Source: an uncultured Gemmatimonadota bacterium (GTDB taxonomy: Bacteria > JAAXHH01). Taken from it: a stretch of 64,000 nucleotides of DNA. Shown one piece after another: positions 1,455 to 63,730 of the stretch. The DNA is taken from positions 640,001 through 704,000 of the forward strand of contig OX638340.1 in the NCBI GenBank assembly GCA_951812955.1. Reading direction: 5' to 3'. How positions within the stretch are numbered: position 1 is the first letter of the stretch; each line of letters opens with the position of its first letter. The notes below the pieces were generated by a model that ran no database searches, was not told the DNA's origin, and saw only the letters and a list, made by a program, of their open reading frames with translations. Made by a program: the position numbers and the translations under genes.

Positions 1455-2183
1455 ATGGTGTTGGACTCCTCGCAGAAAAGATTCTTCATCGATTTCGGTT
1501 ACCTCGTCCTGCCCGGTCTCATGCGTGAGGAGGCACCGTGGATCATCGAAGAATTCGAGCGCGTGTTTGCCCGGGCCGGTGTCGTACATGACGGCAGCAA
1601 GCGGTCGAGCCTGGGACCCTTCATCGAACGCAGCGCCCGCCTGTGTTCGATGCTGGACAACCCGAAGGTCAACGGACTGCTCGCAGGCCTCCTGGGAGAG
1701 GACTTTAACTACCTGGGCAGCGGCGGCGAGTTGTACGTCGGCGACGGCATGTGGCATCCGGACTGTCATGGAGACCCGATACGCCAGCTCAAGTGGGCAA
1801 TGTATCTCGATCATCTGACCCAGAATACGGGCGCCCTGAGACTCGTCCCGGGTTCCCACCGGCACGGATGGCAGGGTAATCTCGACACCCAGGCGCTCTG
1901 GGGCATCGGCATGGAGGATGTCCCCTGCGTCGCCCCCGACAATGCGCCGGGCGACGTGATCGTGTTCAACCAGATGACCCTGCACAATGCCCTTGGCGGC
2001 GGTAATCGCCGGCGCATGTTGAACCTATTGGCCTGCTCATCGTGCCGTACGGAAGCCGAACTGGATTTTCTCAAGCGCAGACTTCCGGCTTCCCGCGCGG
2101 AACTGCATTGGGAGATCATGCGCGGTACCGCGACGGCCGAACGCATGCGCCACCTGGAGCAACCATGGACCCTGCTGAGCTGA
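1455..2183 (+). CDS. Phytanoyl-CoA dioxygenase (PhyH) family Fe(II)/2-oxoglutarate-dependent oxygenase
   Basis: The ORF-track entry starts at a TTG (1434). The first ATG is 1455, with a GAGAGG Shine-Dalgarno 6 nt upstream. Has the HxD...H facial-triad context (WHPDCHGD ... TLHNALGG) typical of PhyH proteins. Its end overlaps the dehydratase start by 19 nt. Confidence 0.65.
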   Translation: MVLDSSQKRFFIDFGYLVLPGLMREEAPWIIEEFERVFARAGVVHDGSKRSSLGPFIERSARLCSMLDNPKVNGLLAGLLGEDFNYLGSGGELYVGDGMWHPDCHGDPIRQLKWAMYLDHLTQNTGALRLVPGSHRHGWQGNLDTQALWGIGMEDVPCVAPDNAPGDVIVFNQMTLHNALGGGNRRRMLNLLACSSCRTEAELDFLKRRLPASRAELHWEIMRGTATAERMRHLEQPWTLLS

Positions 2184-43108: not shown

Positions 43109-46009
43109 CTAATCCTCTACAACGACTTTCTCGACCGCCACAGCGCAGTACTTGAACTCGGGGATCTTGCCCTCGGGATCCAGCGCGTCGTTGGTCAGGA
43201 TATTGGCGGCCGCTTCCTTGAAGTGGAAGGGAATGAAAACGTTGCCTTCGGCGACCCGCGTCGAAGCCTTCGACTTCAGCGTGATGGCGCCGCGGCGGGA
43301 GGAGACGACGACCGGTTCGCCGTCGACTACGCCGAGCAGGTCCAGGTCTGCCGGCGTCATCTCGACGAACGCTTCGGGCGCTATGGCATCCAGGGCCTTC
43401 GCCCGGCGGGTCATGGTTCCCGTATGCCAGTGTTGCAGAAGCCGTCCGGTATTCAGGACAAAGGGGAACTCAGCGTCCGGCAGTTCATCGGGCGGCGCGA
43501 AGGATACGGGCATGAATCGCCCCCGTCCGATGGGGAAGGTGTCGCTGAAGAGGATGGGCTCGTCAAGCGGCCATACCACCGTGCTTTGTTCCATCGATTC
43601 ATAGGTGATCCCATTGAATATAGGCGTTAGGCCCACGATCTCCTCCCAGACTTCCTCCGGCCCCCCGTATTCCCATGCGTCTATCGCATCGCCTTGCTCC
43701 ATCCGTATCATCCGGTTGGCCAGATCGATCAGTATATCCCCGTCCAGCCGCGCTTCGCCTGGTGGCTGGATCGCCTGCCTGCCGACCTGGACCATGCGGT
43801 TGGTGTTGACATAGGTGCCTCGTTTCTCGATCGCGGTGGAAGCCGGCAGGACCACGTCGGCGAATTCGGCGGTCTCCGTCAGGAAGATGTCCTGAACGAC
43901 CAGGAAGGACAGGTTCTGCAGGGCTTTTCTTACCTTGTTCATGTTCGGGTCCGACAGGAAGGGATTCTCTCCCATCATGAACATGCCCGCGATGCGTCCA
44001 TCGAGCGCGCCGTGCATGATCTCCACGACGGTCAGTCCATCCGCCGGATCCAGGGCTTTGCCCCATGCGGATTCGAATCGTCTGCGAACTTCCTGGTCCG
44101 TAACAGGCTGATAGCCCGGGTAGTACCGGGGGATCAGTCCCACGTCAGAAGCGCCCTGCACGTTGTTCTGGCCGCGCAGGGGATGCAGCCCGGTGCCGCG
44201 GCGCCCGATATTGCCGGTCATGAGACACAGCGAAATGAGCGCGCGGGCATTGTCGGTGCCCTTGACGTGCTGGCTGATCCCCATGCCCCAGAAGATGATC
44301 GCCCGCTCCGCGCGCCCGTAAACTCGCGCCAGCTCTTCAATCAATTCCGCGGAAACGCCGGTGATCCTGGAGGTCATTTCCGGGTTGTATGAACGCACCG
44401 ATTCGGCGAGTGCTTCGATTTTTTCGGTACGGTCCGCGATGAACGCGTCGTCCTGCAATCCTTCCCGCAGAATTACGTGCATCAATCCGTTGAGTAACGC
44501 GACATCCGTGCCGGGCTTGAACCGCACGTACCGGGTGGCGTGGTCCGCGATGGTGGGCCGACGCGGATCGAGCACGTAGAGCTTGATCCCCTTCTGGGCC
44601 GCCTGTTTCAAGTAGGTGGCGGCAACGGGATGGTTGTCCTCGGTATTGGAGCCGATCACGAAGATCACGTCCGTATCGAGGACTTCCTGGAAGGCGTTCG
44701 ACACGGCCCCGCTTCCGATGGCCTCCGTGAGTGCCGCAACGGAAGACGCGTGGCAGAGACGCGTGCAGTGGTCTACGTTGTTGGTACCGAATACGACACG
44801 GATCAGCTTCTGGAAGAGGTAGGCTTCCTCGTTGGTGACCTTGGCCGAACCGAAGCCGGCCAGGGCGCCCGGTCCGTTCGATTGCTTGATTTCCAGCAGC
44901 TTTCGGGCCGCGAGGTCGAGCGCCTCATCCCATTCGGCTTCCCGGTATACTTCGCGGATGCGGTCGTTCCAGTCCGCGGACCGCAGCGAACGCCTGAATT
45001 CCCGGTAATCCGTAAAATCCGCCGAAAGCGGTTGCTTGGGATAGGCGTCTTCCCTCCTGATGAGCGGTTTCAGGAGCCGCTGCGGATGGTGCGTGTAGTC
45101 GTAGCCATACCTTCCCTTGACACACAGCCTGCCTTCCGTGTGGGTTTCCTCCCGTCCGGTCGCCCTCAGGATCCTGTTGTTTCGAACATGGTACGTGATG
45201 CCACAGCCCACCCCGCAGTAGGGACACAGGGAGTCGATCCGCGTAACGTCCCGTTCATCCCCTTGCGAAACGACATCGCGGGGTACGTGTTGTTCGCGAT
45301 CGGACAGGCAATCCGGGTCTGCGGCCGGTTTCACGGACCCGGGACTGCTCCCGGCCGTATCTACGAGCGGGATGTCGGTCAGAGCCCCGGTGGGACAGGC
45401 GGCCACACATTCACCGCAGGAGACGCAGGAGGACTTCCCCATGGGCAGGTCGTTGTCGAAGGCGATCCGGGTACCGCAGCCCTTGCCGGCACGGCCAATG
45501 ACGTCGTTTACCTGCACGTCGTCGCAGGCGCGGATACAACGGTCGCACAGGATGCAGGCATTGTGCGCCACCGCGATCACCGGCGAGGACACATCCTCAT
45601 GTTGCGTCGGATTCGGCGCCGCCGGGGCAAACCTATCGGGTCGCGCGGCGAGTTGCCTACCCAGACGCGCCAGTTCATCATGCTCGACCGGCTTGCGCCG
45701 TTCCGGCGCCTTCGGCTGTCCGGCCTCCAGCAATTCCACGAGGGTACGGCGGGTGCGCCGGACCCGCTCCGTATCGGTACGCACGACCATGCCCTCTTCC
45801 ACCTGGCGGATGCAAGCCGCCGGCAAGGTCCGGGCGTTTTCCACGTCTACTACGCACACGCGGCATACGGCCACGGGACGCATCCCTGGATCGTGGCAAA
45901 GCGTGGGGATTTCGATACCGGCCGAGCGGGCCGCATCCCAGATCGTGGCGCCTTCCGGCGCGGTTACGCGTCTGCCGTCGAGGGTCAGCGTCACGGAATC
46001 ACTGCGCAT
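43109..46009 (-). CDS. Molybdopterin oxidoreductase catalytic subunit, NAD-linked formate dehydrogenase alpha (FdsA/NuoG-like), Cys-type
   Basis: About 966 aa from MRSDSVTLTLDGRR. Has an N-terminal 2Fe-2S (CHDPGMRPVAVCRVC) and 4Fe-4S ferredoxin motifs (CILCDRCIRAC, CVSCGECVAACP). The Mo-bisPGD domain carries the active-site CTRLCHASSVAAL, with Cys where selenoprotein FDHs have Sec. The reading frame is uninterrupted, so there is no in-frame TGA. Confidence 0.85.
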   Translation of the reverse strand: MRSDSVTLTLDGRRVTAPEGATIWDAARSAGIEIPTLCHDPGMRPVAVCRVCVVDVENARTLPAACIRQVEEGMVVRTDTERVRRTRRTLVELLEAGQPKAPERRKPVEHDELARLGRQLAARPDRFAPAAPNPTQHEDVSSPVIAVAHNACILCDRCIRACDDVQVNDVIGRAGKGCGTRIAFDNDLPMGKSSCVSCGECVAACPTGALTDIPLVDTAGSSPGSVKPAADPDCLSDREQHVPRDVVSQGDERDVTRIDSLCPYCGVGCGITYHVRNNRILRATGREETHTEGRLCVKGRYGYDYTHHPQRLLKPLIRREDAYPKQPLSADFTDYREFRRSLRSADWNDRIREVYREAEWDEALDLAARKLLEIKQSNGPGALAGFGSAKVTNEEAYLFQKLIRVVFGTNNVDHCTRLCHASSVAALTEAIGSGAVSNAFQEVLDTDVIFVIGSNTEDNHPVAATYLKQAAQKGIKLYVLDPRRPTIADHATRYVRFKPGTDVALLNGLMHVILREGLQDDAFIADRTEKIEALAESVRSYNPEMTSRITGVSAELIEELARVYGRAERAIIFWGMGISQHVKGTDNARALISLCLMTGNIGRRGTGLHPLRGQNNVQGASDVGLIPRYYPGYQPVTDQEVRRRFESAWGKALDPADGLTVVEIMHGALDGRIAGMFMMGENPFLSDPNMNKVRKALQNLSFLVVQDIFLTETAEFADVVLPASTAIEKRGTYVNTNRMVQVGRQAIQPPGEARLDGDILIDLANRMIRMEQGDAIDAWEYGGPEEVWEEIVGLTPIFNGITYESMEQSTVVWPLDEPILFSDTFPIGRGRFMPVSFAPPDELPDAEFPFVLNTGRLLQHWHTGTMTRRAKALDAIAPEAFVEMTPADLDLLGVVDGEPVVVSSRRGAITLKSKASTRVAEGNVFIPFHFKEAAANILTNDALDPEGKIPEFKYCAVAVEKVVVED

Positions 46010-47702
46010 CGGCACCGCCCGTGGTACGATCGGCCTGGCGATCGGCCTGAGGATCGGCCTGGCGATCCGCCGCTTGCCGACAGAGGATCTCGAACTCTTC
46101 CGGGAAATGCCGGCGGGCGGAGGTAAGCGGAAGTGCCGCAGCCTGGCCGAGCCCGCATATGGACGATAGCTCCATCGCTTCTGCAACATCCTTTACGGGT
46201 GCCAGCATGTCGGGCCGCCCGTTGCCTTCAAGTACCTTTTCCAATAGCTGAACGAGATGCTCCGTACCGGTCCGGCAGGGCACGCACTTTCCGCAGGATT
46301 CGTTGCGAAAGAACGTTACCGCGTTCAAGGCTAGATCCACCATGTTTGTGCCCTCGGCCAGAACGATGACCGCACCGGACCCCAGCATGGACCCGGCGTC
46401 CGCGAGGGGCTTGAAGTCAAGCGGGATATCCGCCATGGAAGCTGGAAGGAAACCCGACGACGTGCCTCCCGGAGAAAAGGCCTTCAGCTTGCGACCGTCG
46501 GAAACGCCGCCCCCCTCGTTATCAATGAGATCGCGAACCCGCGTTCCGAGGGGGATTTCGTACACGCCGGGCCGGTTGACATGCCCGCTGAGGGCGATGT
46601 ACTTGCGTCCCGCCGCGCCGTTTATCCCCTGGCTTCTGAACCATTCGGCGCCGCGACGCAAAATGGCGGGCACCCAGGCGAACGTCTCCACATTGTTGAT
46701 GAGCGTGGGCCTGCCGTGTAGCCCGTGCGTACCCGGGAACGGCGGCTTGTTCCGGGGTTCTGCACGTTTGCCTTCCATTGCTTCCAGCAGAGCCGTCTCC
46801 TCGCCGCAGATATAACCGCCCGGACTGTCGAAGATCTCAAGGTGAAACGAATGTTCCGAATTGAACACGCCGTCGCCCAGGTATCCCGCGGAGTAGAACG
46901 CCCTGATGGTCTTCTCCAGCACTTCCCGTTCCCGTTCGTATTCATGGCGAAGGTAAAGGTATCCCTGATTTGCCCCGACCACGAGACCACCCAGGATCAG
47001 CCCTTCGACGACGAGATGGGGATAGTGGTACAGGATCTCGCGGTCCTTGAACGTGCCGGGTTCGCTCTCGTCCGCATTGCAGATCGCGTACTTGTCCTCG
47101 GATTCGGCCTTTCGGACCAGATCCCACTTCACCCCCGTCGGGAACCCGGCTCCGCCCATGCCGCACAGCCCGCTGTCCTTGATTACCTGCAGAATCCGGT
47201 CCGAGTTGCCGTCCGAAACCCACGCTTTTAACGATTCGGCGGCCAGTGGATGGCCATAGGGATCAATAAGCCCGGGGCTGGCACGCCGCCGGGTGGGCTG
47301 CCGGGCGACCCTTCCGTCCTCGGCCAACCGGGCGACGAAATTGCTAAGACGGTCCGGTGACATGGAACGGTAACTGAGATCGTTGATCGAGACCGCCGGC
47401 GCCCCATCGCACTGTCCAAGGCAGGAAACTCCGGTTACCTCCCAGTTTTCAAGCCCGGCATAATCCACGGTTTCCCGCAGGGTCTCCAGCAGGTCACAGG
47501 CGCCGTGGAGGTGGCACGTGAGGTCGGTACAGACGCGCAGCGTAGCCACCGGGGGAGGCTCAAGTCTGAAGTGAGGGTAGAAGCTGGCCACGCCATGGGC
47601 TTCGTAGAGGGGAATGCCCTTCCGCTCCGACAGGGATTTCAGTTCATCTTCAGGCAGATAGCCGTGGCGCGCCTGTATCTCCTTCAGATCATCTATCAGC
47701 AT
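45999..47702 (-). CDS. NAD(H)-binding diaphorase subunit. It is a fusion of a NuoE-like 2Fe-2S thioredoxin-fold domain with a NuoF-like FMN/NAD/4Fe-4S domain (FdsG+FdsB / HoxF-like).
   Basis: 567 aa. The NuoE-like N-terminus is MLIDDLKEIQARHGYLPEDELKSL...CTDLTCHLHGACDLLE...GVSCLGQCDGAPA. The NuoF-like core has GLCGMGGAGFPTGVKW and the ESCGKCVPCR 4Fe-4S motif. The C-terminal tail is low-complexity (QADR)n. It overlaps the alpha-subunit start by 11 nt. Confidence 0.8.
   Translation of the reverse strand: MLIDDLKEIQARHGYLPEDELKSLSERKGIPLYEAHGVASFYPHFRLEPPPVATLRVCTDLTCHLHGACDLLETLRETVDYAGLENWEVTGVSCLGQCDGAPAVSINDLSYRSMSPDRLSNFVARLAEDGRVARQPTRRRASPGLIDPYGHPLAAESLKAWVSDGNSDRILQVIKDSGLCGMGGAGFPTGVKWDLVRKAESEDKYAICNADESEPGTFKDREILYHYPHLVVEGLILGGLVVGANQGYLYLRHEYEREREVLEKTIRAFYSAGYLGDGVFNSEHSFHLEIFDSPGGYICGEETALLEAMEGKRAEPRNKPPFPGTHGLHGRPTLINNVETFAWVPAILRRGAEWFRSQGINGAAGRKYIALSGHVNRPGVYEIPLGTRVRDLIDNEGGGVSDGRKLKAFSPGGTSSGFLPASMADIPLDFKPLADAGSMLGSGAVIVLAEGTNMVDLALNAVTFFRNESCGKCVPCRTGTEHLVQLLEKVLEGNGRPDMLAPVKDVAEAMELSSICGLGQAAALPLTSARRHFPEEFEILCRQAADRQADPQADRQADRTTGGADAQ
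46025..46075 (-). repeat. 12-bp tandem repeats (gatcggcctg g/a c/g x4) encoding the QADRQADPQADRQADR tail of the diaphorase subunit. They overlap the RBS region of the alpha subunit.
   Basis: Seen directly: cgatcggcctggcgatcggcctgaggatcggcctggcgatccgc. Confidence 0.7.
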
Positions 47703-50403: not shown

Positions 50404-51711
50404 TTAAACGTTGTTTGCTTCCTCGCGCTTCAGGCGATAGGCCCTGTCCAGCAGTTCCACCGGATGAAGGACATCGATCTCCCTTCCGTCCCGTCGAACG
50501 CCGTGCTGGATCTGAAGGATGCAGCCGGGATTTCCTGTCGCCACCATATCGGGCTCCGCTTGTCTGACATGACCCATCTTGCGGACCAGCAGCCTGTCCG
50601 CCATTTCGGGATGCGTCAGGTTGTATATGCCGGCGCTGCCGCAGCACCAGTCCGATTCCTCCAGTTCGACGAGTTCGAGTCCGGGAATCAGGCTCAGCAG
50701 GTCCCGGGGTTCCTCCCGCACGCGCTGGCCGTGAGCAAGGTGGCAGGCGTCGTGATAGGCGACCCGCGCCCTGATCGTACCCATCTCCTCATTAACGGGT
50801 ATCCCGGCGAGAAACTCGTGAACGTCCTTAACCTTGTTCGAAAAGGCAAAGGCGCGGTCTCGGTAAGCGGGATCCCCTGCCAGCAAATCACCGTACTCTT
50901 TCAGTTGTGCACCGCAGCCCGCGGCGTTTATGATGATGGTGTCCACTTCCGCCTTTTCGAAAGCATCGATGTTCCTGCGGGCAAGCGATTCGGCCACGGT
51001 ACGCTCACCGCTGTGCACCTGAAGCGCGCCGCAGCAGGTCTGTGTCTCGGGTATGACTACGTCGCAACCGTTTTCGTTCAACACCCGGGCGGTGGCGGTG
51101 TTCACATGGGTGAACATTTCGTTCATCACGCAACCCGATATCAGGCCCACGCGGTGGCTGGACTTCCCCCGTGCGGGCATGAACGGTCTCAACTGCCCTT
51201 TCATGGCCCGGTCCGGCATGACAGGGATCATGGATTCCATGTCGCGAATCCGTGACGGGAGCAGTTTCGTCAATCCCAGAATCCGTACGATCTTCTGAAG
51301 ACCCAGTGCCTGGTAGGCGCGCAACGGCAGGAAGGCGACGGAGAGCCTGAAGCGCGAAGGCAGCAGCATTTCGAACACGAGTTTCCGGAGAAACCGGTCA
51401 ATCACGGAACGGGGCCGTTTTTCCGCGATCTCCGCCCGGGCGGCTTCCACGAGACTGCCGTAGTGGACACCCGCGGGACAGGCCGTTTCGCAGGCCCGGC
51501 AGTCCAGGCACCCGTCCATGTGCTTCTCGAAATGATCCGTCAGTTCAATTCGACCATCCGCATAGGCGCGCATGAGGTGGATGCGGCCACGCGGCGAATC
51601 CATTTCCACGCCGAGTTCAGTATAAGTCGGACATGCCGGAAGACACAATCCGCAGTGCACGCAATCCAGAAACTTGTCGTATTCGTGTACCAGTCTATTC
51701 TGCGAGCTCAT
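50404..51711 (-). CDS. (Fe-S)-binding protein of the GlcF / heterodisulfide-reductase-like family (2x 4Fe-4S plus two CCG domains)
   Basis: From Met33 (MSSQNRLVHEYDKFLDCVHCGLCLPACPTY...CLDCRACETACPAGV). The ferredoxin motifs are followed by two Cys-rich CCG domains (CCGALQVHSG...; DWCCGSAGIYN). The upstream roughly 30-aa extension in the ORF-track entry is probably untranslated. Confidence 0.7.
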   Translation of the reverse strand: MSSQNRLVHEYDKFLDCVHCGLCLPACPTYTELGVEMDSPRGRIHLMRAYADGRIELTDHFEKHMDGCLDCRACETACPAGVHYGSLVEAARAEIAEKRPRSVIDRFLRKLVFEMLLPSRFRLSVAFLPLRAYQALGLQKIVRILGLTKLLPSRIRDMESMIPVMPDRAMKGQLRPFMPARGKSSHRVGLISGCVMNEMFTHVNTATARVLNENGCDVVIPETQTCCGALQVHSGERTVAESLARRNIDAFEKAEVDTIIINAAGCGAQLKEYGDLLAGDPAYRDRAFAFSNKVKDVHEFLAGIPVNEEMGTIRARVAYHDACHLAHGQRVREEPRDLLSLIPGLELVELEESDWCCGSAGIYNLTHPEMADRLLVRKMGHVRQAEPDMVATGNPGCILQIQHGVRRDGREIDVLHPVELLDRAYRLKREEANNV

Positions 51712-51947
51712 GCTATACGGATTCCGATCTTGCGGGAACGGGTGTACCGGCCGGTCGCGCCTGGACGCGCCTGGTCGCACCTGGACCGGCCTGGCCATGG
51801 CGCTCACGAGGGGATTCCACTAAGTGCAACGGCACGATCGGCTGGTTTGCAGGGCGATAGTCGTAGAATAACAGTAGTTTAAACGTATAATGTCAAGCAG
51901 TTTATGGGATGTCCACAGGGCGAAATAAACCTTCCATATTCCGTCGA

Positions 51948-53030: not shown

Positions 53031-54092
53031 CTACCGTTGCGACAGGCGCCGCACGATGTCATCGCCCACATCGACGGTACGCGACGTGCCACCGATATCG
53101 GGCGTGCGGATCCTGGCCTCGCCGAGGTTTTCCGCCACGGCTTTTCGTATGGCCGATCCGGCTTCCGCCTGGCCCAGGAACTCGACCATCATAGCCGCCG
53201 CCAGGATCGTGGCGATGGGGTTGACCTGGCTCTTACCGATCAGTTCGAAGGCCGAACCGTGGACCGGTTCGAACATGGAGGGATGTAAACGTTCGGGGTT
53301 CAGGTTCGCGCTGGGGGCCAGTCCCATGCTGCCAATGGTAATCGCCGAGATATCGGTCAGGATGTCGCCGAAAAGGTTCGAGGCCACCACTACGTCGAAA
53401 TCCTGCGGCCTGCGCACGAAATCCATGGCCGCCGCGTCGATCAGGAGGGATTCGGTCTCGATATCTTCGTATTCCTGCTTCACGTTATCGAACACCTCGT
53501 CCCAGAATACCATGCCGTGACCCTGGGCATTCGACTTCGTAATGGACGTGACCCTGCGCCTTCCTCCGCGCCGCCGCGCTTCTTCGAATGCATACCGGAT
53601 AATCCGTTCCGTGCCGTGCCGGGTGAAAACAGAAGTCTGGACTGCGACCTCCTGGTCGGTCTGGTGATACACGCGGCCCCCAATGTCGGCGTATTCCCCT
53701 TCTGTGTTCTCACGGACGACCACCAGGTCAATGTCCCCGGGTCCCTGGTCCGCCAGGGGGGACCGAACCCCTTCGTACAAATAAGCGGGCCGGACACAGG
53801 CGTACTGGTCGAACCTGCGGCGAATGGGTAGGATCAGGTTGTTCAGGGTAATGTGATCCTGGACTTCCTCATCGCCGACCGCACCGAAGAAAATCGCGTC
53901 GAAAGCAGCCAGTTCATCCAGGCCGTCTTCCGGAATAAACCTGCCCGTACGTTTGTAGCGGTTGGAACTCCAGTCGAACCGGGTAAAACGGAAAGCCGGT
54001 TCGCCCAGCGCTTCGAGCGTCTTTATGCCTTCCTCGATGACTTCGGGGCCTACACCGTCCCCGGCGATCACGGCAATTTCGAAATTTGTCAT
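53031..54092 (-). CDS. Tartrate dehydrogenase / 3-isopropylmalate dehydrogenase family (decarboxylating beta-hydroxyacid dehydrogenase)
   Basis: From Met133 of the ORF-track entry (MTNFEIAVIAGDGVGPEV...). Has the ICDH/IMDH signature NLFGDILTD. The upstream 132 codons of the listed ORF overlap the preceding gene and are not part of the protein. Confidence 0.8.
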   Translation of the reverse strand: MTNFEIAVIAGDGVGPEVIEEGIKTLEALGEPAFRFTRFDWSSNRYKRTGRFIPEDGLDELAAFDAIFFGAVGDEEVQDHITLNNLILPIRRRFDQYACVRPAYLYEGVRSPLADQGPGDIDLVVVRENTEGEYADIGGRVYHQTDQEVAVQTSVFTRHGTERIIRYAFEEARRRGGRRRVTSITKSNAQGHGMVFWDEVFDNVKQEYEDIETESLLIDAAAMDFVRRPQDFDVVVASNLFGDILTDISAITIGSMGLAPSANLNPERLHPSMFEPVHGSAFELIGKSQVNPIATILAAAMMVEFLGQAEAGSAIRKAVAENLGEARIRTPDIGGTSRTVDVGDDIVRRLSQR

Positions 54093-54637
54093 GTTTTGAT
54101 GGTACAATCGTCGCAGATCCACGCGGCCCGTGTCATCCCACCCACCGGGATTTCCGTATCGTAGTCCTGCATTACCGGCACCCGAGTTCTTCCACAGAAG
54201 TCGCATTTGCCCGTCCGCTTGCCTGGCGGGCTTTCCGCCCGTTTCATGGCGACCACATCGCTTTCCCGGTACGGATCCGCGAAACGTCGTGCGAATCCGA
54301 GCACCTGTCGATCCGTTTCTGTTTGCAACGCTCGCCTGACAATGGGTTCGAAGGCGGGATCGGTGGGACAACCTCCGTCTTCCAGCGTATGCCACGCCCG
54401 GCGGCGGACACGGGCGTCCTCGTCCTCCATCATGCGGTAGATCGCCTTCCAGACTTCTTCGTTGCGGTGACGGACGTGGCACGGACACATGTAGGTCGCC
54501 GCCACGATCCGTTCCTCGGGATCCGTGCTCTGGGACAGGCGCAGGAGTTCGGCGATATCTTCCCTGCTCACGCGTTCCTCGCCCGGTTTTCGCCAGGCCT
54601 TCTGATGTCTGTTAAGGCCGGTGTTTCGTTTTGCCAT
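54089..54637 (-). CDS. Hypothetical protein with HEAT/PBS-lyase-like repeats and a C-terminal ClpX-type C4 zinc ribbon
   Basis: 182 aa. The repeats (EERIVAATYMCPCH, DARVRRRAWHTLEDGG) resemble HEAT-like units. The C-terminus KCDFCGRTRV...WICDDCT resembles the ClpX N-terminal zinc-binding motif (CSFCGK...ICDEC). It is translationally coupled (ATGA) to the dehydrogenase gene. Confidence 0.4.
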   Translation of the reverse strand: MAKRNTGLNRHQKAWRKPGEERVSREDIAELLRLSQSTDPEERIVAATYMCPCHVRHRNEEVWKAIYRMMEDEDARVRRRAWHTLEDGGCPTDPAFEPIVRRALQTETDRQVLGFARRFADPYRESDVVAMKRAESPPGKRTGKCDFCGRTRVPVMQDYDTEIPVGGMTRAAWICDDCTIKT

Positions 54638-55726: not shown

Positions 55727-56614
55727 ATGGTGTTATTTGTTGAAGCGGGAAGGGCTGGACGGTGTACATTACTGCGTCCCAGCCGTACCTACAGGTGGCG
55801 CAAACAGCAAACACAGAAAGCGTACCGAGTGACCTACTTGATCCGGACCGCCGTCGTCATGCTCTTGTTGACCGTCATGATCGCCGTGGCTCTGCCAACG
55901 GCCCGTGGACAACGTACGCCCGATTCTCCCGTAACGAGCTGGCGCAAACTCGAAACGCGGATGACAGACAATTGCGCCCTCTGTCACCAGCGCCTGGGCG
56001 AACCCCTCGCCAAACAGGTCGCGCAATGGCAGGGGAGCATCCATGCGTGGCGCGGAGTTTTCTGCGACACGTGCCACGGGGGCGATCCCACCAGCACCAT
56101 CCTCACCGTGGCCATGGGCGAGCAGAATGGGTTCATGGACGCGCCGCTGCCCGAGGCCATACCCGATGACTGCGGACGCTGTCACCCGGAAGCGCTGGAA
56201 AGCTTCTGGGAAAGCGCCCACGGGGACCTGTTCGAGGCCAATGACTTCGAACCCGGATGCGTCACCTGCCACGACAGTCACGACGTGAAGGAAGTGCATA
56301 TCGACATGGTATCGATCACCGCGCCTTGCGGCGAATGCCACGACCAGGACTATATCGACGAGGTCCGCAACCCCCTGGTCGACACGGACGGAAGATTAGA
56401 ACGGCTCTACGGCCAGATCCTGGCGATGCCAGGGGACAACCCCAACGCGCCCTACCTCCGCAACCGTCTCATCCGCGTCCGCAAGCAGTTCCGTGGCCTG
56501 GCCCACTACCTGGCCACCAACACCATTGTCACCAAGCGGCAGGCTATCGACCGGGAACTCGACTACATCGAATTCATGCTGCATTTCGATGACAACACCG
56601 TCGAAGGCAAGTAG
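55727..56614 (+). CDS. Pentaheme c-type cytochrome (five CxxCH motifs) with an N-terminal signal/anchor
   Basis: The CxxCH motifs are CALCH, CDTCH, CGRCH, CVTCH and CGECH. A hydrophobic segment (VVMLLLTVMIAVALPTARG) follows a basic N-region. The start is uncertain: ATG at 55727 or internal Met at 55859. Confidence 0.7.
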   Translation: MVLFVEAGRAGRCTLLRPSRTYRWRKQQTQKAYRVTYLIRTAVVMLLLTVMIAVALPTARGQRTPDSPVTSWRKLETRMTDNCALCHQRLGEPLAKQVAQWQGSIHAWRGVFCDTCHGGDPTSTILTVAMGEQNGFMDAPLPEAIPDDCGRCHPEALESFWESAHGDLFEANDFEPGCVTCHDSHDVKEVHIDMVSITAPCGECHDQDYIDEVRNPLVDTDGRLERLYGQILAMPGDNPNAPYLRNRLIRVRKQFRGLAHYLATNTIVTKRQAIDRELDYIEFMLHFDDNTVEGK

Positions 56615-56723: not shown

Positions 56724-56746
56724 GACAGGCTTTGCGAGGTAAGGTT

Positions 56747-56819
56747 GCCGAGGTAGCTCAGGCGGTAGAGCAGTGGACTGAAAATCCATGTGTCGACAGT
56801 TCGACTCTGTCCCTCGGCA
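56747..56819 (+). tRNA. tRNA-Phe (anticodon GAA), 73 nt, CCA not encoded
   Basis: The sequence is GCCGAGGTAGCTCAGGCGGTAGAGCAGTGGACTGAAAATCCATGTGTCGACAGTTCGACTCTGTCCCTCGGCA. A 7-bp acceptor stem (GCCGAGG/CCTCGGC) is followed by an A discriminator. It has a D-arm (GCTCAGGCGGTAGAGC) and an anticodon loop cTGAAaa. The T-arm is GACAGTTCGACTCTGTC. Confidence 0.85.
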
Positions 56820-57302
56820 TTTCATTTCATATTCAAATAGTCGACTGTCGTGGCAATCTTGGCCCGTGTATCCCACGCCGAGGCGCCAGCAGCTTTAGAA
56901 AGCTCAGGCGCGCCACCAAAGCCACCGCTGCCTGGAAATCCTGGGATGGCCCCAGCCACCCCCGATGTGCTGGCACGGATTGCATCCCCATCGTACCTCC
57001 CGTCCGTTCTTCCATACTGCCACTGGTATTTCCGCGGACAACCGCCTGCATGCTGCATCATCCCGCAGACCGGTTACCTCGAAATCACAGCCTGTTTGAC
57101 AACGGCGCCGCCCGGTCGATAGGCGGCAAAAAGCGAGGCGGCCGCGTCGGCTCGAAATGCGAAGCACAATTCTTTCGCAACGTTTCAGGTAAACCAGGGG
57201 TCAAACAACAGATCGCCATAATCAAGCAAATGACAACAGACACAAACCAGTTCATCCGCTGACGCTCCAAGACACCCATTTCCCTGAACCCAAGGCGCAA
57301 TC

Positions 57303-59723
57303 ATGTTCCGAAATTACCTCAAGATCATCCAACGAAACACCCTGCGCCAAAAGGGATACGCCGTGATCAACGTCCTTGGTCTCGCGGTGGGGATGGCCAG
57401 TTGCATCCTGATCATGCTCTATGTACAGGATGAACTCGGTTATGACCGGTACGCGGCGCGGCACGACCGGATCTATAGGCTTGCCATGTCGATAGAGACG
57501 GCGGACAGAGCGGAAACCAGGACCGCGCGGAGCCCGGCAGCCTGGGGATGGATGCTGGCCGACTCCTTCCCGGATGTCGAAGGATACGCCCGGGTAAAAG
57601 CACCGCTGGTCTCCTGGCAGGTCACCTACGTGGAGGGCAACAAACGGTTCAACGAACCGGGATTCTATTTCGCGGATCACGGCATACTGGATATGTTCGA
57701 TTTCGAACTGGTACGCGGCGATGCGAACACGGCCTTGAATGCCCCCAATACGGTGGTGATTACCGAAACCACGGCGGCAAGGTACTTCGGACGGGACGAA
57801 GCACTGGGCAAAGTGATTCGGATCGATAACACGTACGACCTGACCGTTACCGGCGTAATGCAAGACGTACCGCGCAATTCCCATATGACGTTCAGTTTCC
57901 TGGGGTCCTTCGAAACGCTCAACGTGAACCCGATTTACGGTGGGCTGGATTACGGCCGGAATACCCAGAACTTCGCCCCGGACCTGTACACCTATCTGCT
58001 GCTAGCCGACGGTTACACGCCGGATTCCCTCGAACCGAAACTGGCGGAGTTTGTAGAAACGCGCTACGGACCGGCCCTGCGGCAGTTCAACGCGCAAATC
58101 AAGGCCAGTCTTCAGCCACTGACCAGCATTCACCTGCATTCGAACCTCGACGGGGAACTGGGCGCGAACAGCGACATCGCTTACATCTACATCTTCACGG
58201 CCGTTGCTTTCTTTCTACTGTTGATCGCCTGCATCAACTTCATGAACCTCGCGACGGCCCGCTCCGCCGGGCGAGCCAGGGAGGTAGGTATCCGCAAGGT
58301 ATTGGGGGCGTACCGCGTTCAGTTGATCGGTCAGTTCATGGGTGAATCCACGATCATGGCGTTGCTTTCATTGGCCGTGGCCGCGGGACTGGTCCTTGCG
58401 TTTCTGCCGGCGTTCAACACCCTGGCCGGCAAGGAACTGATCTTTGCCTTCGACGATATGCGCACGGTATTCGGCCTGCTCGGAATCGTTGTGCTGGCCG
58501 GTGCACTGGCCGGCAGCTATCCGGCACTGTTCCTGTCTTCATTCCAACCGGTCTCCGTGCTGAAGGGCTCTTCCAGGGCGGGTGCGGTGAATACGAACCT
58601 TCGGAAGATACTGGTCGTACTGCAATTCGTAATATCGGTCATGTTCATCATCGGCACGGGCGTGGTAGCAGACCAGATGCGGTTCGTGCAGGACAAGCAC
58701 CTTGGATTCGAGAAAGAACAACTGGTGGTCATGCCGCTCGGAGACCCCAGGCAACGCGTGATCTACAATGCCTACAAGGACAGGATCGCCGACTATCCCA
58801 ACGTATTGGGCGTTACGGTGGCCAACGAATTGCCGGGCGGCCTGGTGAACGACATCCTGTTTACTCCGGACGGCGCTCCGGAAGAGGAATCGGTCCGCAT
58901 CAACAACATGTGGATCGACCACGACTTCATCCGCACGATGGGCGTTGAACTCGCGGAGGGGCGCGATTTCTCCAGATCCTTCCCCGCGGATACGATGCAG
59001 TCTTTCGTGATTAACGAGGCCGCCGTAAAATGGCTCGGTTGGGTAGACGCTCCGATCAACAAGAGAGTCCGCCTCGGAAACTTCAAAGATGGGCGGGTCA
59101 TCGGTGTTGTGCGAGACTTCCATGTGCGGTCACTGCACAGCGACATCGAACCGATGATGCTGCAGCTGCCGCCCAGTCCGGACCCGTACCATTATCTCGC
59201 CGTGCGGATTGCACCGGATGACGTGGCCGGAACCATGGGATTCCTGGAAGGCAGCTGGCGCGAGATCTATCCGGACGACTCGTTTACCTATTCGTTTCTT
59301 GACGCGGACTTCGACAGTCTGTATCAGAATGAAGCACGGCAGGGACGCATCTTCCGGAGTTTCTCCCTGCTGGCCGTTTTCATCGCGTGCCTTGGTCTGC
59401 TGGGACTTGCCTCCTTCACCGCGGAACAGCGAACCCGGGAAATCGGCGTGCGGAAAGTGCTGGGCGCGACCGCATCCGGCATCGTCGCGCTGGTTTCGAA
59501 AGAATATGTCAAACTGGTCGTGTACGCCAACTTGATCGCCTGGCCTGTTGCCTACTATGTGATGAACGGCTGGCTCGACAGCTTCGCTTACAGTACGGGC
59601 CTTTCACCCTGGGTTTTCGTGCTCGCCGCGGCGCTTGCGATAGCCGTTACGATGCTGACGGTAAGCTACAAGGCCATCAGCGTCGCCCACACCGATCCCG
59701 TGGACGCGTTGCAACACGAATGA
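57303..59723 (+). CDS. FtsX-like ABC transporter permease with two FtsX/MacB-type domains and large periplasmic domains (YbbP/MacB-like). No cognate ATPase is adjacent.
   Basis: 806 aa. There are two copies of the four-TM FtsX permease module (…FMNLATARSAGRAREVGIRKVLGA… and …EQRTREIGVRKVLGA…), each preceded by a MacB-PCD-like extracytoplasmic domain. Confidence 0.8.
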   Translation: MFRNYLKIIQRNTLRQKGYAVINVLGLAVGMASCILIMLYVQDELGYDRYAARHDRIYRLAMSIETADRAETRTARSPAAWGWMLADSFPDVEGYARVKAPLVSWQVTYVEGNKRFNEPGFYFADHGILDMFDFELVRGDANTALNAPNTVVITETTAARYFGRDEALGKVIRIDNTYDLTVTGVMQDVPRNSHMTFSFLGSFETLNVNPIYGGLDYGRNTQNFAPDLYTYLLLADGYTPDSLEPKLAEFVETRYGPALRQFNAQIKASLQPLTSIHLHSNLDGELGANSDIAYIYIFTAVAFFLLLIACINFMNLATARSAGRAREVGIRKVLGAYRVQLIGQFMGESTIMALLSLAVAAGLVLAFLPAFNTLAGKELIFAFDDMRTVFGLLGIVVLAGALAGSYPALFLSSFQPVSVLKGSSRAGAVNTNLRKILVVLQFVISVMFIIGTGVVADQMRFVQDKHLGFEKEQLVVMPLGDPRQRVIYNAYKDRIADYPNVLGVTVANELPGGLVNDILFTPDGAPEEESVRINNMWIDHDFIRTMGVELAEGRDFSRSFPADTMQSFVINEAAVKWLGWVDAPINKRVRLGNFKDGRVIGVVRDFHVRSLHSDIEPMMLQLPPSPDPYHYLAVRIAPDDVAGTMGFLEGSWREIYPDDSFTYSFLDADFDSLYQNEARQGRIFRSFSLLAVFIACLGLLGLASFTAEQRTREIGVRKVLGATASGIVALVSKEYVKLVVYANLIAWPVAYYVMNGWLDSFAYSTGLSPWVFVLAAALAIAVTMLTVSYKAISVAHTDPVDALQHE

Positions 59724-59902: not shown

Positions 59903-61834
59903 GTGGCTACTAAAAACTATGCCTCGCTGCCTTACACCGAACCGGACAACCTCGTCCGGGATTTCGCCAGTCGCGGCATCGTCGCCCTGCCGCCTGAAAG
60001 CCTGGGCATCCCCGAAGAAATCCATCATCGCATATACACCCTGGAAAAGCAGGCCTACCTGGCGAGAAAGCCCGTAACACCGGGCGGCATGCCGGACGTC
60101 CTGAAGGTCATCAACGCCCCGGGCGTGGTTGAAGCCTGCAACCGCATCGTGGGACGAAACTGGGCCATCGTCCCTTTCACACACAACGCCTCATTCGCGA
60201 GCGGCGCGCGGGACCAGCACTGGCACAAGGACGACAACGGCCCCTACAACGGCCGCAAGCAACGCCATCACCAGGCTGTGCAGATCGAAATGCTGTACTA
60301 TCCCCAGGACGTGAGCGAAGTCATGGGGCCGACGGCCACCATCCCCTACTCCCATTACTGGACGTTCAATCACGAAGAGAACCATGATAATTTCGCGGGG
60401 GCCGATCACCTCGATTTCGAGTACCAGATCAGCGGGATGGAAGGCGTCCCGGTCAGCGGTCCCGACTCCGAATACGACTGGGAGGAAGTCGTCCAACGGC
60501 GCACGGCCCACGACGTCCGCATGCGGGAAGCGGTGACCAATACGGGATGGCCCCTCGTGAGACCCTACGAGGCCGCGCCGCTACGGGCGGGAAGCGTGCT
60601 GCTTTACTCCCACAACACGTTCCACAGGGGAAATCACAGGCGCGACGACTGGAAACTGTGGGACAGCCATCCGCGCTTCATGTGGCGATTCTGGATCTAC
60701 CGAACTACCGAACCGGCCATACGCGATGGCGATGATCCCGGGGAAACCGCCTGGCGAAGCCTCGGCGCGGACCCCTTGACCGGTGTTGACCTGCGGTCGG
60801 CCGATGACGACGTGACGGTTGTCTGGCGCTACCACAACTACTGGATGCAGACCGGGAAAACACCCCCGCCGAGACCCGAAGCCGATTCGCAATCCATTGC
60901 GGGACGGAAATCCGAGGCACGGAATCTAAACGCGCAGTTGCACGCCATGGGCGACGAGTCGGAACCTCTCCGTATCGGCGCGGCCTACAAGCTCGCTTCG
61001 ATCGGGGACGACGCACTGGCGGTAAAGCACCTCGGCGAGGCGTTGTACAGTCATAGGGAAAGCGTACGCCGGGCGGCGACTTACGGCCTGATCGCCACTG
61101 GAGAGCAGGCCACGGCGACCTTCATCGAAGCGACGAAGTCACCGGTCAAATGGGTCAGAAAGGCCGGCGTATACGGACTGGGCGACTGCGCGCCGCTCAC
61201 CGACGAAGTACTGGCATCCGCAACTTCGCTCCTCCACGGTGATCCGTCCGTCTACGTCCGTGCTGTAGCCGCCGGAACACTGGGCTGCCTGGGACGGCGC
61301 GCCGCGGGAACGGGTATCGGAACGACCCTGATTCCCCGATGCCTCGCTGCGCTAGTACGCAGCATCGAGCGCGAAGAGAACCGGCTGAGCATGGACCTTG
61401 CGCAGCAGCGTAGCATCAAGTTCGCGCGACCCACCGACGCGTGCGACGTCTGCGAAGGCAACGGAGTCGACATGGGCCTGGACCGGTTCGAACCGGTACG
61501 CTCGGCGGTTCGGGAAAACGCCTTGTGGTCCATGGTCATCCTTTGTTCCCATGGAACTTACCTGGCGGACGATGCCCTGGTTTCCACCATCGAAGCCTTG
61601 AAAATGGTGGTGCGCAACGATAAAAACGTCATCTGCGTAGGATTCGCAATGGACGCCCTCAATCGCCTGGCGAACCTGGAAACCACCGGACCCACGCCGG
61701 CCGCGCTCGACAGACTGCGTGCAGACCTGCTGCAGATTCTCGGCGAATCCCCCATACGGTGCTGGGAAGCGCTCGTTCGGGGCGGACTGAGTACGGAGTT
61801 CCTGGCCGCGTTCTCCGAATCCGAAGCCGGATAG
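59903..61834 (+). CDS. Fusion protein: N-terminal PhyH-like Fe(II)/2OG dioxygenase domain plus C-terminal HEAT/PBS-lyase-like repeat domain
   Basis: 643 aa. The N-terminal roughly 300 aa have an HxD (QHWHKDDN) and a distal His (LLYSHNTFHRGNHRR), as in PhyH. The C-terminal roughly 330 aa carry HEAT-like repeats (EPLRIGAAYKLASIG, ESVRRAATYGLIATG, KWVRKAGVYGLGD, SVYVRAVAAGTLGCLG, ...). Confidence 0.55.
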   Translation: MATKNYASLPYTEPDNLVRDFASRGIVALPPESLGIPEEIHHRIYTLEKQAYLARKPVTPGGMPDVLKVINAPGVVEACNRIVGRNWAIVPFTHNASFASGARDQHWHKDDNGPYNGRKQRHHQAVQIEMLYYPQDVSEVMGPTATIPYSHYWTFNHEENHDNFAGADHLDFEYQISGMEGVPVSGPDSEYDWEEVVQRRTAHDVRMREAVTNTGWPLVRPYEAAPLRAGSVLLYSHNTFHRGNHRRDDWKLWDSHPRFMWRFWIYRTTEPAIRDGDDPGETAWRSLGADPLTGVDLRSADDDVTVVWRYHNYWMQTGKTPPPRPEADSQSIAGRKSEARNLNAQLHAMGDESEPLRIGAAYKLASIGDDALAVKHLGEALYSHRESVRRAATYGLIATGEQATATFIEATKSPVKWVRKAGVYGLGDCAPLTDEVLASATSLLHGDPSVYVRAVAAGTLGCLGRRAAGTGIGTTLIPRCLAALVRSIEREENRLSMDLAQQRSIKFARPTDACDVCEGNGVDMGLDRFEPVRSAVRENALWSMVILCSHGTYLADDALVSTIEALKMVVRNDKNVICVGFAMDALNRLANLETTGPTPAALDRLRADLLQILGESPIRCWEALVRGGLSTEFLAAFSESEAG

Positions 61835-61917: not shown

Positions 61918-62910
61918 ATGCCCGTGCCGCATATCCTCGTCGAAAATATCGTCAAAACCTTCCGCATCGCCCAGCGCCGATCCGGGCTCTGGGGGGCCTT
62001 CCAGGGCGTCCTTCGCCGTGAATACAGGACGATCAAGGCCCTGGACCGCGTCTCCTTCGAACTGGCGCAGGGAGAACTGGTCGGTTATATCGGACCCAAC
62101 GGGGCGGGCAAGTCCACGACCGTTAAAGTCCTCTCCGGCATCCTGGTACCTGATTCGGGACGTTGCGAGGTCGATGGGCGCGTCCCATGGCGAAACCGTA
62201 TCGCCAACGCGGCCAACATCGGCGTGGTGTTCGGACAGCGGACCCAGTTGTGGTGGGATCTGCCCGTTATCGAATCTTTCGACCTGCTTCGGGATATCTA
62301 CCGGATCGGAAGCGGCGAATACGAGCGGGCCAGGGACGAGCTCGCGGCGCTCATGGATTTGGAACCGCTGTACGATATCCCGGTGCGTCAACTCAGCCTC
62401 GGACAGCGCATGCGGTGCGACCTGGCCGCGGCCCTGCTTCACGCACCCTCGGTGCTCTTCCTGGACGAGCCCACCATCGGCCTGGACGCCGTGTCAAAAC
62501 TTGCCGTACGGGATTTCATCAAGCGGCTGAACCGGGAACGGGGCGTTACCGTCGTACTGACAACCCACGACATGGACGATATCGAGGCCCTGTGTGAACG
62601 CGTGATGGTGATCGGTCACGGGAGCATTCTGTCCGACAGCACGCTGGACGACCTGCGCGCCCGTGTCACCCGGGAACGTCGTCTCATCATAGATCTGCTC
62701 GACGATGGCCAGGCGATCGAGGACCCGGACGTCGACTTCATCTCGCGAAGCGGAAACCGTGTCCACCTGCAGTTCGATCCGGACCGCGTTCAGACCGCGG
62801 CCCTGATCAGCCGGATTACGGCGAAGTACGCCATCAAGGACTTGTACGTAGAGAACCCGCCGATAGAAGAAATCATTTCCCGGCTGTACGACGAACACGA
62901 ACTCCGCTGA
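61918..62910 (+). CDS. ABC transporter ATP-binding protein (ABC-2/CcmA-like exporter ATPase)
   Basis: Has Walker A (GPNGAGKSTT), signature (LSLGQRMRC), Walker B (LFLDEPTIGLD) and an H-loop (TTHDM). The ATG at 61918 has an AAGGG Shine-Dalgarno. The longer ORF-track entry (61759) overlaps the previous gene. Confidence 0.85.
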   Translation: MPVPHILVENIVKTFRIAQRRSGLWGAFQGVLRREYRTIKALDRVSFELAQGELVGYIGPNGAGKSTTVKVLSGILVPDSGRCEVDGRVPWRNRIANAANIGVVFGQRTQLWWDLPVIESFDLLRDIYRIGSGEYERARDELAALMDLEPLYDIPVRQLSLGQRMRCDLAAALLHAPSVLFLDEPTIGLDAVSKLAVRDFIKRLNRERGVTVVLTTHDMDDIEALCERVMVIGHGSILSDSTLDDLRARVTRERRLIIDLLDDGQAIEDPDVDFISRSGNRVHLQFDPDRVQTAALISRITAKYAIKDLYVENPPIEEIISRLYDEHELR

Positions 62911-62923
62911 AAACCGGCCAGGC

Positions 62924-63730
62924 ATGATACAATCCTTTGTTCTCCCGTATACCGCCGTGCTATCCGCCCGGTTCCGGATGATCCTCCAGTACCGGGCCGC
63001 GGCCATTGCCGGCTTCGTCACGCAGATCGGCTGGGGCGCGATACGTGTCATGGCCATGGAAGCCTTTTACCGGTCCACGAACGCCCCCCAGCCCATGAAC
63101 CTCGAAGACGTAGTGACCTATGTCTGGCTGGGCCAGGCCCTCCTCGGCCTTTTACCGTGGAATCCCGACACGGAAGTCCGCACCATGGTCCGCTCCGGTA
63201 CCGTGGCCTACGAGCTGGTCCGGCCGGTAAACCTCTATGCCTACTGGTTCTCCCGTTCGCTGGCATTCCGTATAGCGCCGACACTGATGAGATCCATCCC
63301 GCTTGCGTTACTTGCGTTGCTGTTTTTCGGGATGCAGCCTCCGGCATCACCGGAGGCACTGGTCGTCTGGCTGGCGGCGACCCTCGGCGCGGTATTGCTA
63401 AGTACGGCGCTTACCGTAATCCTCACGATTACATTAATGTGGACGATTTCGGGGGAAGGCGTGGCCTTGCTTGTCTCGCCGGTCATCTATATTCTGGCGG
63501 GAATGGTCATCCCCCTGCCGCTCTTTCCCGACTGGGCGCAATTCGCGCTCGAAATCCTGCCTTTCCGCGGCATTTGCGACGCTCCGTTCAGGCTGTACAT
63601 GGGCCATATACCAATCACGGAAGCCTGGACCGTCCTGCTACATCAGTTGATCTGGATCATAGTCCTGGTGGCATTCGGCGCATGGTTGCTCTCGAAAGCG
63701 ACCCGCCGCCTGGTCATTCAGGGAGGCTAA
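62924..63730 (+). CDS. ABC-2 family transporter permease
   Basis: 268 aa with six predicted TM helices. It lies immediately downstream of the ABC ATPase (13-nt gap). Confidence 0.6.
   Translation: MIQSFVLPYTAVLSARFRMILQYRAAAIAGFVTQIGWGAIRVMAMEAFYRSTNAPQPMNLEDVVTYVWLGQALLGLLPWNPDTEVRTMVRSGTVAYELVRPVNLYAYWFSRSLAFRIAPTLMRSIPLALLALLFFGMQPPASPEALVVWLAATLGAVLLSTALTVILTITLMWTISGEGVALLVSPVIYILAGMVIPLPLFPDWAQFALEILPFRGICDAPFRLYMGHIPITEAWTVLLHQLIWIIVLVAFGAWLLSKATRRLVIQGG

Follow-up and report, generated by a model that had tools for sequence, protein, structure and literature searches.

A PhyH-type Fe(II)/2-oxoglutarate oxygenase joined to a HEAT-repeat solenoid in an uncultured Gemmatimonadota bacterium and in marine bacteria of many phyla

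A stretch of 64,000 nucleotides from an uncultured Gemmatimonadota bacterium (assembly GCA_951812955.1, contig OX638340.1, positions 640,001 to 704,000; hereafter "the window") carries a single gene that encodes a PhyH-type Fe(II)/2-oxoglutarate (2OG) oxygenase followed by a HEAT-repeat solenoid. Judged by sequence comparison, this PhyH-HEAT fusion arose long ago and is widely distributed among marine bacteria and bacteria living with sponges, and it also occurs in some dinoflagellates; the residues of its oxygenase make up an intact 2-His-1-carboxylate site with a candidate 2OG-binding arginine. We propose with moderate confidence that the protein is a cytoplasmic, competent PhyH-class oxygenase of a small molecule, in which the solenoid is an obligate and rigidly packed part and not a tether for a partner.

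Two domains and a predicted active site

The open reading frame (ORF) claimed as a PhyH::HEAT fusion in the first-pass annotation was borne out in its exact frame (Table 1). In the Pfam check recommended there both domains pass the curated cut-offs, and the quoted motifs were located at amino acids (aa) 106-112 (HWHKDDN) and 236-247 (SHNTFHRGNHRR). The GTG start at position 59903 was accepted because close relatives share the starting residues MATK(T/N)YASLPYT; some annotations begin farther upstream. A public protein (P0001) is 100% identical to that of the window. No secretion signal is evident in the N-terminus MATKNYASLPYTEPDN, read by eye and without a predictor, and a promoter and terminator scan around the gene gave nothing above shuffled expectation.

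The PhyH profile (PF05721) matches aa 77-243 of the window protein with 26.2 bits (cut-off 22, E 1.2e-5), and more distant members of the PhyH-HEAT family reach 53 bits on the same profile. On sequence alone, an N-domain profile picks up FtmOx1 at E 0.003 and EctD at E 0.016; in the profile alignment QHWHKD falls on the FtmOx1 metal motif QPFHRD and FHRG on the distal-His region. Conservation was read from an alignment of 76 PhyH-HEAT family sequences (A4), relatives down to 23% identity included. Here H241, R242 and R258 are invariant, and H108, D110, R121, H123 and YYPQ at 132-135 are at least 90% conserved; H108 and D110 are invariant in two further alignments (A2, A3) with members down to 23% identity. 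As many as 104 of the 270 N-domain positions are invariant. Either of two invariant arginines, R258 and R242, might contact 2OG; R258 is taken as the candidate because it lies on the strand after the distal histidine H241, as in PhyH-family enzymes. Since H108, D110, H241 and R258 are kept at 23-30% identity, the enzyme is probably catalytically active.

A first AlphaFold model, built with 40 homologues that were all at least 65% identical, had a predicted local distance difference test (pLDDT) score of 76.8 and was weakest at the conserved motifs. It was superseded by a model built with the 76-sequence alignment (pLDDT 92.4, predicted template modelling (pTM) score 0.93). The N-half of this model has the jelly-roll fold of the PhyH structural class and matches KanJ, AusE and human PhyH. 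Foldseek places KanJ first (E 6e-7, 17-18% identity), and the nearest folds, KanJ, AusE, TlxI, EvdO and PtlH, are all small-molecule oxygenases. By profile, fold and triad the protein is a member of the PhyH superfamily.

The C-half is a paired-helix solenoid that scores above the gathering thresholds of HEAT_2 (PF13646; 38.7 bits, cut-off 27.7) and HEAT (PF02985; 30.6 bits, cut-off 23.5) and thus belongs to the HEAT family. Its structural matches include alphaRep (14.9), E. coli YibA (14.4), CpcF (12.3) and also CpcE; importins, the PP2A A subunit and designed binders are likewise among its structural neighbours. No solved chain spanning both halves was found among the structure matches. Profile and fold prediction, the latter also recommended in the first pass, thereby agree with its reading of a 2-His-1-carboxylate PhyH-type N-half and a HEAT/PBS-type C-half. 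Because the pTM of the whole protein is 0.93, the model points to a HEAT domain that is a rigid, integral second domain.

Two segments outside the catalytic core deserve mention. The inter-domain region, with 5 of 65 positions invariant, contains a helix (302-317) that is seen in the model and whose W314 is nearly invariant across the 76 sequences. Conservation in the C-half peaks in the insertion between HEAT repeats at aa 491-534 (model pLDDT 68-83), where 20 of 44 positions are invariant; the DxCEG motif within it is kept in relatives of 36-47% identity (P0233, P0237-P0239). Alignments and profile comparison show that this insertion is absent from a second subfamily of about 530 aa and from the dinoflagellate proteins, both described below.

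Table 1. Features of the PhyH-HEAT gene, its neighbours and the other PhyH and HEAT proteins of the window (positions in the window).
Feature	Position	Strand	Remarks
PhyH-HEAT gene, complete	59903-61834	+	GTG start, TAG stop, 643 aa; from the ORF list
PhyH-type Fe(II)/2OG oxygenase domain	59903-60712	+	aa 1-270, jelly-roll core
H108-K109-D110	60224-60232	+	HxD of the metal-binding facial triad; invariant in alignments A2 and A3; aligned to FtmOx1 HRD
H241	60623-60625	+	distal His of the facial triad, in TFHRG; invariant in the 76 sequences of A4; aligned to the FtmOx1 distal-His region
R258	60674-60676	+	candidate 2OG C5-carboxylate-binding Arg, in PRFMWRF; invariant in the 76 sequences of A4
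Inter-domain region	60713-60895	+	aa 271-331; variable stretch, then conserved helix 302-317 (VWRYHxxW)
HEAT-like alpha-solenoid	60896-61816	+	aa 332-638, about 7 helix pairs
Insertion between HEAT repeats	61373-61504	+	aa 491-534, about 44 aa; specific to the ~640-aa subfamily
DxCEG motif	61445-61459	+	D515-V-C517-E518-G519, in the insertion; invariant in alignment A1
MacB/FtsX-type permease	57303-59723		upstream of PhyH-HEAT, 179-nucleotide (nt) gap
ATP-binding cassette (ABC) ATPase	61919-62910	+	downstream; Pfam ABC_tran; probable ATG at 61919, 84 nt past the PhyH-HEAT stop
ABC-2 permease	62924-63730	+	downstream; Pfam ABC2_membrane_6
Free-standing PhyH	1434/1455-2183	+	32.9 bits
Free-standing PhyH	11980-12948	-	83.9 bits
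Major facilitator superfamily (MFS)::HEAT	29255-31570	-	771 aa; MFS_1 97 bits; C-terminal HEAT_2 99.8 bits, HEAT_PBS 48.6 bits
Small HEAT protein	54089-54637	-	HEAT_2 28.8 bits; weak C4 zinc-ribbon match

Distribution and evolution of the family

The protein search gave 675 matches, the best 120 of which were described in detail: nearly all of these are 618-677 aa long, match the query over 95-100% of its length with 66-100% identity, and bear uninformative names. The full-length homologues number more than 100. A genome scan by tblastn, with one genome per species, yielded 65 PhyH-HEAT loci, and all 65 are colinear over both halves unless a contig end interrupts. The loci belong to Latescibacterota, Gemmatimonadota, Poribacteria, SAR324/Deltaproteobacteria, Opitutales, Moanabacter, Zixibacteria, Trueperaceae, Dehalococcoidia and Gammaproteobacteria; Planctomycetota and Chloroflexota were found among the named proteins of the protein search. 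Identity across loci and phyla ranges from 52 to 97%; from phylum to phylum most members are 58-72% identical, and those of two gammaproteobacterial metagenome-assembled genomes (MAGs) 52-53%. Judging by their isolate names, many homologues would come from MAGs of sponges, corals or the open ocean. A marked expansion of PhyH-domain proteins in sponge symbionts has been reported for Poribacteria (PMC3909097).

When the N-domain by itself was used in an exhaustive HMMER search, only 402 cluster representatives reached E <= 0.001. The distant relatives (23-37% identity, 480-620 aa), from marine Gammaproteobacteria and the dinoflagellates Effrenium voratum and Gymnodinium smaydae, again pair PhyH with HEAT. 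The subfamily of about 530 aa, to which the dinoflagellate proteins belong, has both domains at 23-30% identity to the window protein, and hhalign of the dinoflagellate proteins against the family gave probability 100 over both domains (463-486 columns). The dinoflagellate proteins themselves (P0301/P0376 of E. voratum, P0312 of G. smaydae) are 500-824 aa long and have the full short-subfamily architecture; their eukaryotic origin is putative. A protein from a metagenome in the European Nucleotide Archive (ENA; P0323, 721 aa) adds an N-terminal EF-hand to the PhyH-HEAT architecture.

Neither word-indexed nor exhaustive searches found a stand-alone close relative of the N-domain, and all relatives of full length carry the two domains together. 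Another fusion partner for the HEAT domain was considered and rejected, as a search with the C-half only gave solely fragments of the PhyH-HEAT family. Because sequences group mostly by clade with some mixing in a rough neighbour-joining tree, vertical descent and transfer have likely both shaped the family. The "lineage-specific habit of appending HEAT scaffolds" proposed in the first pass is not supported by our data: the fusion is colinear in 65 loci of many phyla and recurs in a second subfamily. In the literature searched no paper joins PhyH with HEAT; a paper on PHYHD1 as a nucleoside demethylase deals with ordinary single-domain PhyH proteins.

The possibility that the two halves are separate genes in relatives, which had been named as one way to refute the fusion, was checked as well. 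One gene was found in every related genome examined, and the apparent splits are frameshifts. Natural gene fission was rejected for P0127 and P0138 (322 aa, N-half only), which precede a HEAT ORF and whose tblastn homology continues in another frame; from their sequences these split genes are frameshifts in long-read assemblies or pseudogenes. Tandem copies, suggested at two loci (L055, L059) by two to three adjacent ORFs in the clustering, were also rejected, lengths and motifs being those of pieces of one interrupted gene. Homologues broken by frameshifts into two to three ORFs occur in long-read or low-coverage MAGs (L074:3001-5009, L075:3001-4876, L055:8001-9886, L059:7935-9922). Gene callers list them as separate "PhyH" and "HEAT" proteins, which could skew domain-architecture statistics. 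True second copies are found only at separate loci within one MAG and are diverged (66-74% identity). At a locus of Moanabacter (Verrucomicrobiota; L046:6963-9999) the homologue is truncated to 564 aa, matches query positions 1-554 and is directly followed by a Mutator-family transposase gene, which suggests disruption by an insertion element.

Genomic neighbourhood and proposed function

The gene does stand beside an ABC-2 exporter, as had been pointed out in the first pass, but the link fails beyond close relatives. In the tblastn set of 65 loci the ABC pair lies directly downstream in 21 of 21 with at least 80% PhyH-HEAT identity and in 0 of about 40 at 73% or less. By this comparison of loci the adjacency is clade synteny, not conserved functional pairing, and the PhyH-HEAT gene appears to be a stand-alone unit without functional coupling to the exporter. 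Within the syntenic clade (L001-L058 compared) identity is 54-94% for the ABC ATPase versus 80-97% for PhyH-HEAT, and 82-96% for the ABC-2 permease.

No neighbour is conserved across clades or phyla in the loci compared; all synteny is clade-specific. Latescibacterota loci have a divergent UxuA-like dehydratase with an HpcH aldolase and, farther on, polysaccharide deacetylases, a DegT aminotransferase and an isochorismatase-like gene. A sulfatase lies directly downstream in Poribacteria. An Opitutales locus has a 3-keto-disaccharide hydrolase, an HpcH aldolase and PIG-L, SAR324 loci have a haem-dependent N-demethylase-like gene and RidA, and in one locus (L074) a glycoside hydrolase family 95 (GH95) gene lies upstream of the homologue. 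In long-subfamily Gammaproteobacteria a coenzyme A (CoA)-transferase III gene is directly adjacent, either 12 nt downstream on the same strand (L054) or divergent upstream (L053). Neighbours in Planctomycetota, Chloroflexota and an 8.1-Mb metagenome contig (P0078) are unrelated. Each short-subfamily gene examined comes second, immediately behind the gene of a hydrolase or hydratase whose family varies: an enoyl-CoA hydratase (3-nt gap), a haloacid dehalogenase (HAD) hydrolase (one base shared) or an alpha/beta hydrolase (1-nt gap). The short-subfamily genes are surrounded by TauD, PhyH, amidohydrolase, short-chain dehydrogenase/reductase (SDR), glutathione S-transferase (GST), luciferase-like and P450 genes.

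For the oxygenase of a small molecule that we propose, iron would be held by H108, D110 and H241 and 2OG anchored by R258, and the enzyme would hydroxylate or otherwise oxidise a small organic molecule from seawater or host-derived organic matter. By analogy with the tetratricopeptide repeat (TPR) domain of the aspartyl/asparaginyl beta-hydroxylase AspH, the solenoid may serve as a built-in substrate-binding wall or lid, while the DxCEG loop may take part in the active site or belong to a second one. A metabolite is favoured as substrate, since the short-subfamily genes lie in a catabolic setting and all structural neighbours of the N-half act on small molecules. KanJ as best match, taken with neighbouring genes of carbohydrate type, gives a weak hint of an amino sugar or sugar acid, and the CoA-type genes beside gammaproteobacterial members give an equally weak one of an acyl-CoA. 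Several observations weigh against the proposal. These hints at a substrate class are mutually inconsistent, and weak because no neighbour is conserved across clades. The adjacency of CoA-transferase, sulfatase and PhyH genes is likely due to chance since all three are very abundant in those genomes. Finally, the unusual conservation, both across phyla and within the N-domain, could equally fit a macromolecular substrate.

This last point leads to an oxygenase that modifies proteins or peptides, with the HEAT solenoid docking a protein substrate or a partner complex, which we regard as unlikely. HEAT and ARM solenoids do typically bind proteins, as the importins, the PP2A A subunit and the designed binders among the structural neighbours illustrate, and in protein hydroxylases such as AspH repeat domains dock substrates, which by analogy would suit the same role here. 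The very high conservation across phyla, solenoid and invariant loop included, and the absence of a conserved metabolic operon among the loci compared are also in its favour. The same loci, however, lack any conserved neighbour able to encode a partner or substrate, the short-subfamily genes sit in catabolic small-molecule clusters, the five closest folds all belong to enzymes of small molecules, and some genomes hold two diverged copies. Equally doubtful is the idea that the ~640-aa proteins form a distinct, previously undescribed class of 2OG oxygenases, with the solenoid and the DxCEG loop contributing to the active site, as a second metal or redox centre or as a gate, and a macromolecular or unusual substrate. 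If true, a distinct class with a conserved reaction on a substrate common to marine symbionts, free-living bacteria of the sea and dinoflagellates would explain the 58-72% identity across most phyla sampled.

Two narrower substrate assignments follow the genomic context of particular clades. KanJ-like oxidation of an amino sugar or glycan-derived compound, as a step in the breakdown of sulfated, N-acetylated polysaccharides of hosts or algae, would agree with the DegT sugar aminotransferase, two polysaccharide deacetylases, UxuA-like dehydratase and HpcH aldolase of Latescibacterota, the HpcH aldolase, 3-keto-disaccharide hydrolase and PIG-L deacetylase of Opitutales, the poribacterial sulfatase and the GH95 gene. 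It is nevertheless rather improbable: the Latescibacterota gene points away from the sugar genes, sulfatases and carbohydrate genes abound in those genomes, and no comparable context exists in the window or in several other phyla. An acyl-CoA hydroxylase, which would truly correspond in function to phytanoyl-CoA 2-hydroxylase, take branched or isoprenoid acyl-CoA thioesters as substrates and hold their CoA moiety with a basic solenoid, is in our view distinctly improbable. A marine gammaproteobacterial short-subfamily gene does lie 3 nt after an enoyl-CoA hydratase gene, with a second enoyl-CoA hydratase, an SDR, a CoA-transferase III and an acyl-CoA carboxylase near, and CoA-transferase III adjoins two long-subfamily loci of the same class (L053, L054). 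Yet such genomes contain a great many CoA-transferase III genes, whose base rate is accordingly high. The CoA context is confined to Gammaproteobacteria and is absent in Latescibacterota, Poribacteria, Chloroflexota, Planctomycetota and the window; identity to human PhyH is 9%, and no NCBIfam equivalog matches. Hardly credible, lastly, is a catalytically dead scaffold or sensor that uses the jelly-roll for binding only. The low PhyH Pfam score, the missing NCBIfam match and the large family-specific insertions could be read this way, but in 76 sequences down to 23% identity the residues of the facial triad and R258 vary little or not at all, and distant members score up to 53 bits on the PhyH profile.

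PhyH-HEAT is thus a well-conserved, uncharacterised two-domain variant of a known enzyme class, and nothing contradicts current understanding. The two-domain subfamily is among the best conserved of the PhyH-domain proteins expanded in sponge symbionts, is recognisable by its fixed architecture and DxCEG loop, and is found in free-living marine bacteria and dinoflagellates as well. Most PhyH-domain proteins of sponge symbionts are without a known substrate; identification of the substrate would give a function to several hundred sequence clusters and might point to a compound that is passed on or broken down within marine host-microbe systems, while the mechanism would show the part of the HEAT solenoid in substrate recognition by 2OG oxygenases. 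In annotating the window, the fusion should be taken neither for a local evolutionary habit nor for a part of the ABC-2 exporter system.

Other genes of the window and comparison with known systems

The two additional PhyH proteins, the MFS::HEAT protein and the small HEAT protein cited in the first pass all exist with the stated domains, several of them on the minus strand (Table 1), and Pfam scans of most other large ORFs of the window revealed no further PhyH or HEAT protein. The description of the PhyH proteins as paralogues is not supported. The three PhyH proteins share a superfamily, but recent duplication was not borne out, pairwise BLASTP giving no similarity between the N-domain and either of the other two. 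Compared one to one, the HEAT domain and the C-terminus of MFS::HEAT are 32% identical over 117 aa (E=0.003), a likeness at repeat-consensus level only that does not support a paralogy of the two HEAT arrays. A pairwise comparison of the dioxygenase HEAT domain with the small HEAT protein gave no similarity. The MFS::HEAT repeats are much nearer the Pfam consensus than those of the dioxygenase.

Two of these genes overlap a neighbouring ORF. The small HEAT ORF overlaps the 5' part of a long ORF for an isocitrate/isopropylmalate dehydrogenase (53031-54488, minus strand). Because the Pfam match of the dehydrogenase begins only at aa 138, its true start is probably farther downstream, and the two genes probably do not overlap. 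PhyH 1434-2183, which has a weak C-terminal Trm112p-like zinc-ribbon match (E 0.018), stands between a D-2-hydroxyacid dehydrogenase and an IlvD/Edd-type dehydratase (2042-3853, plus strand). The longest ORF of the dehydratase overlaps the PhyH gene by about 140 nt, so that its start is probably later.

Elsewhere in the window, a multihaem cytochrome c gene with c7/c3-type motifs (55727-56614, plus strand) precedes the window's only tRNA gene, tRNA-Phe GAA (56746-56820, plus strand), both of them just upstream of the MacB-type permease. On the minus strand (43109-47702 and 50404-51807) a 1026-aa molybdopterin oxidoreductase (2Fe-2S, 4Fe-4S) adjoins a NuoF-like FMN/NADH subunit that carries a fused thioredoxin-like 2Fe-2S domain. 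The pair looks like a NAD-linked complex of the formate-dehydrogenase type; a CCG-domain/4Fe-4S protein is encoded nearby. A 595-aa protein (7054-8841, plus strand) may be surface-bound or secreted; it matches the lamin-tail domain in two stretches (95 bits) and has a FlgD Ig-like domain at its C-terminus.

Among characterised proteins, the kanamycin B dioxygenase KanJ (PDB 7cl2, 6s0u) is likewise a PhyH-class Fe(II)/2OG oxygenase and is 16-18% identical to PhyH-HEAT. It is, however, a single domain of about 280 aa in an antibiotic gene cluster, a different genomic setting, and has neither HEAT domain nor DxCEG loop. Human PHYH (PDB 2a1x; PF05721), at 9% identity, lacks the large insertions and the ~310-aa solenoid. 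PhyH-HEAT shows neither the orthology to PHYH nor the acyl-CoA context of phytanoyl-CoA 2-hydroxylase proper (EC 1.14.11.18), and the NCBIfam scan of the window protein, which covers the EctD equivalog model, gave no match. It is not an orthologue of phytanoyl-CoA hydroxylase, EctD or KanJ. The C-half shares the PBS-lyase-type HEAT fold with CpcE/CpcF (5n3u), YibA (1oyz) and the alphaRep scaffold, a design based on such repeats; unlike these, its solenoid is broken by a 44-aa insertion and covalently joined to an oxygenase. Since there is no match to HEAT_PBS (PF03130) and no phycobiliprotein or photosynthetic context, as would mark a phycobilisome lyase such as CpcE/F or NblB, the C-half is a HEAT_2-type solenoid and not a phycobilin lyase.

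AspH offers a parallel in architecture. It joins a TPR domain to a 2OG oxygenase domain, and the TPR domain forms part of the substrate-binding cleft; the repeat is N-terminal, the substrate a protein, and the enzyme resides in the eukaryotic endoplasmic reticulum. PhyH-HEAT differs in having HEAT instead of TPR repeats, the reversed domain order and an oxygenase domain of another subfamily, with no homology beyond the jelly-roll superfamily. The ~530-aa subfamily (P0291/P0362 of marine Gammaproteobacteria; E. voratum CAJ1431987.1, G. smaydae) lacks the DxCEG insertion and a second one at aa ~176-200 of the ~640-aa proteins. Its members, likewise uncharacterised, are true homologues, with the same two domains and the same invariant H/D/H/R.

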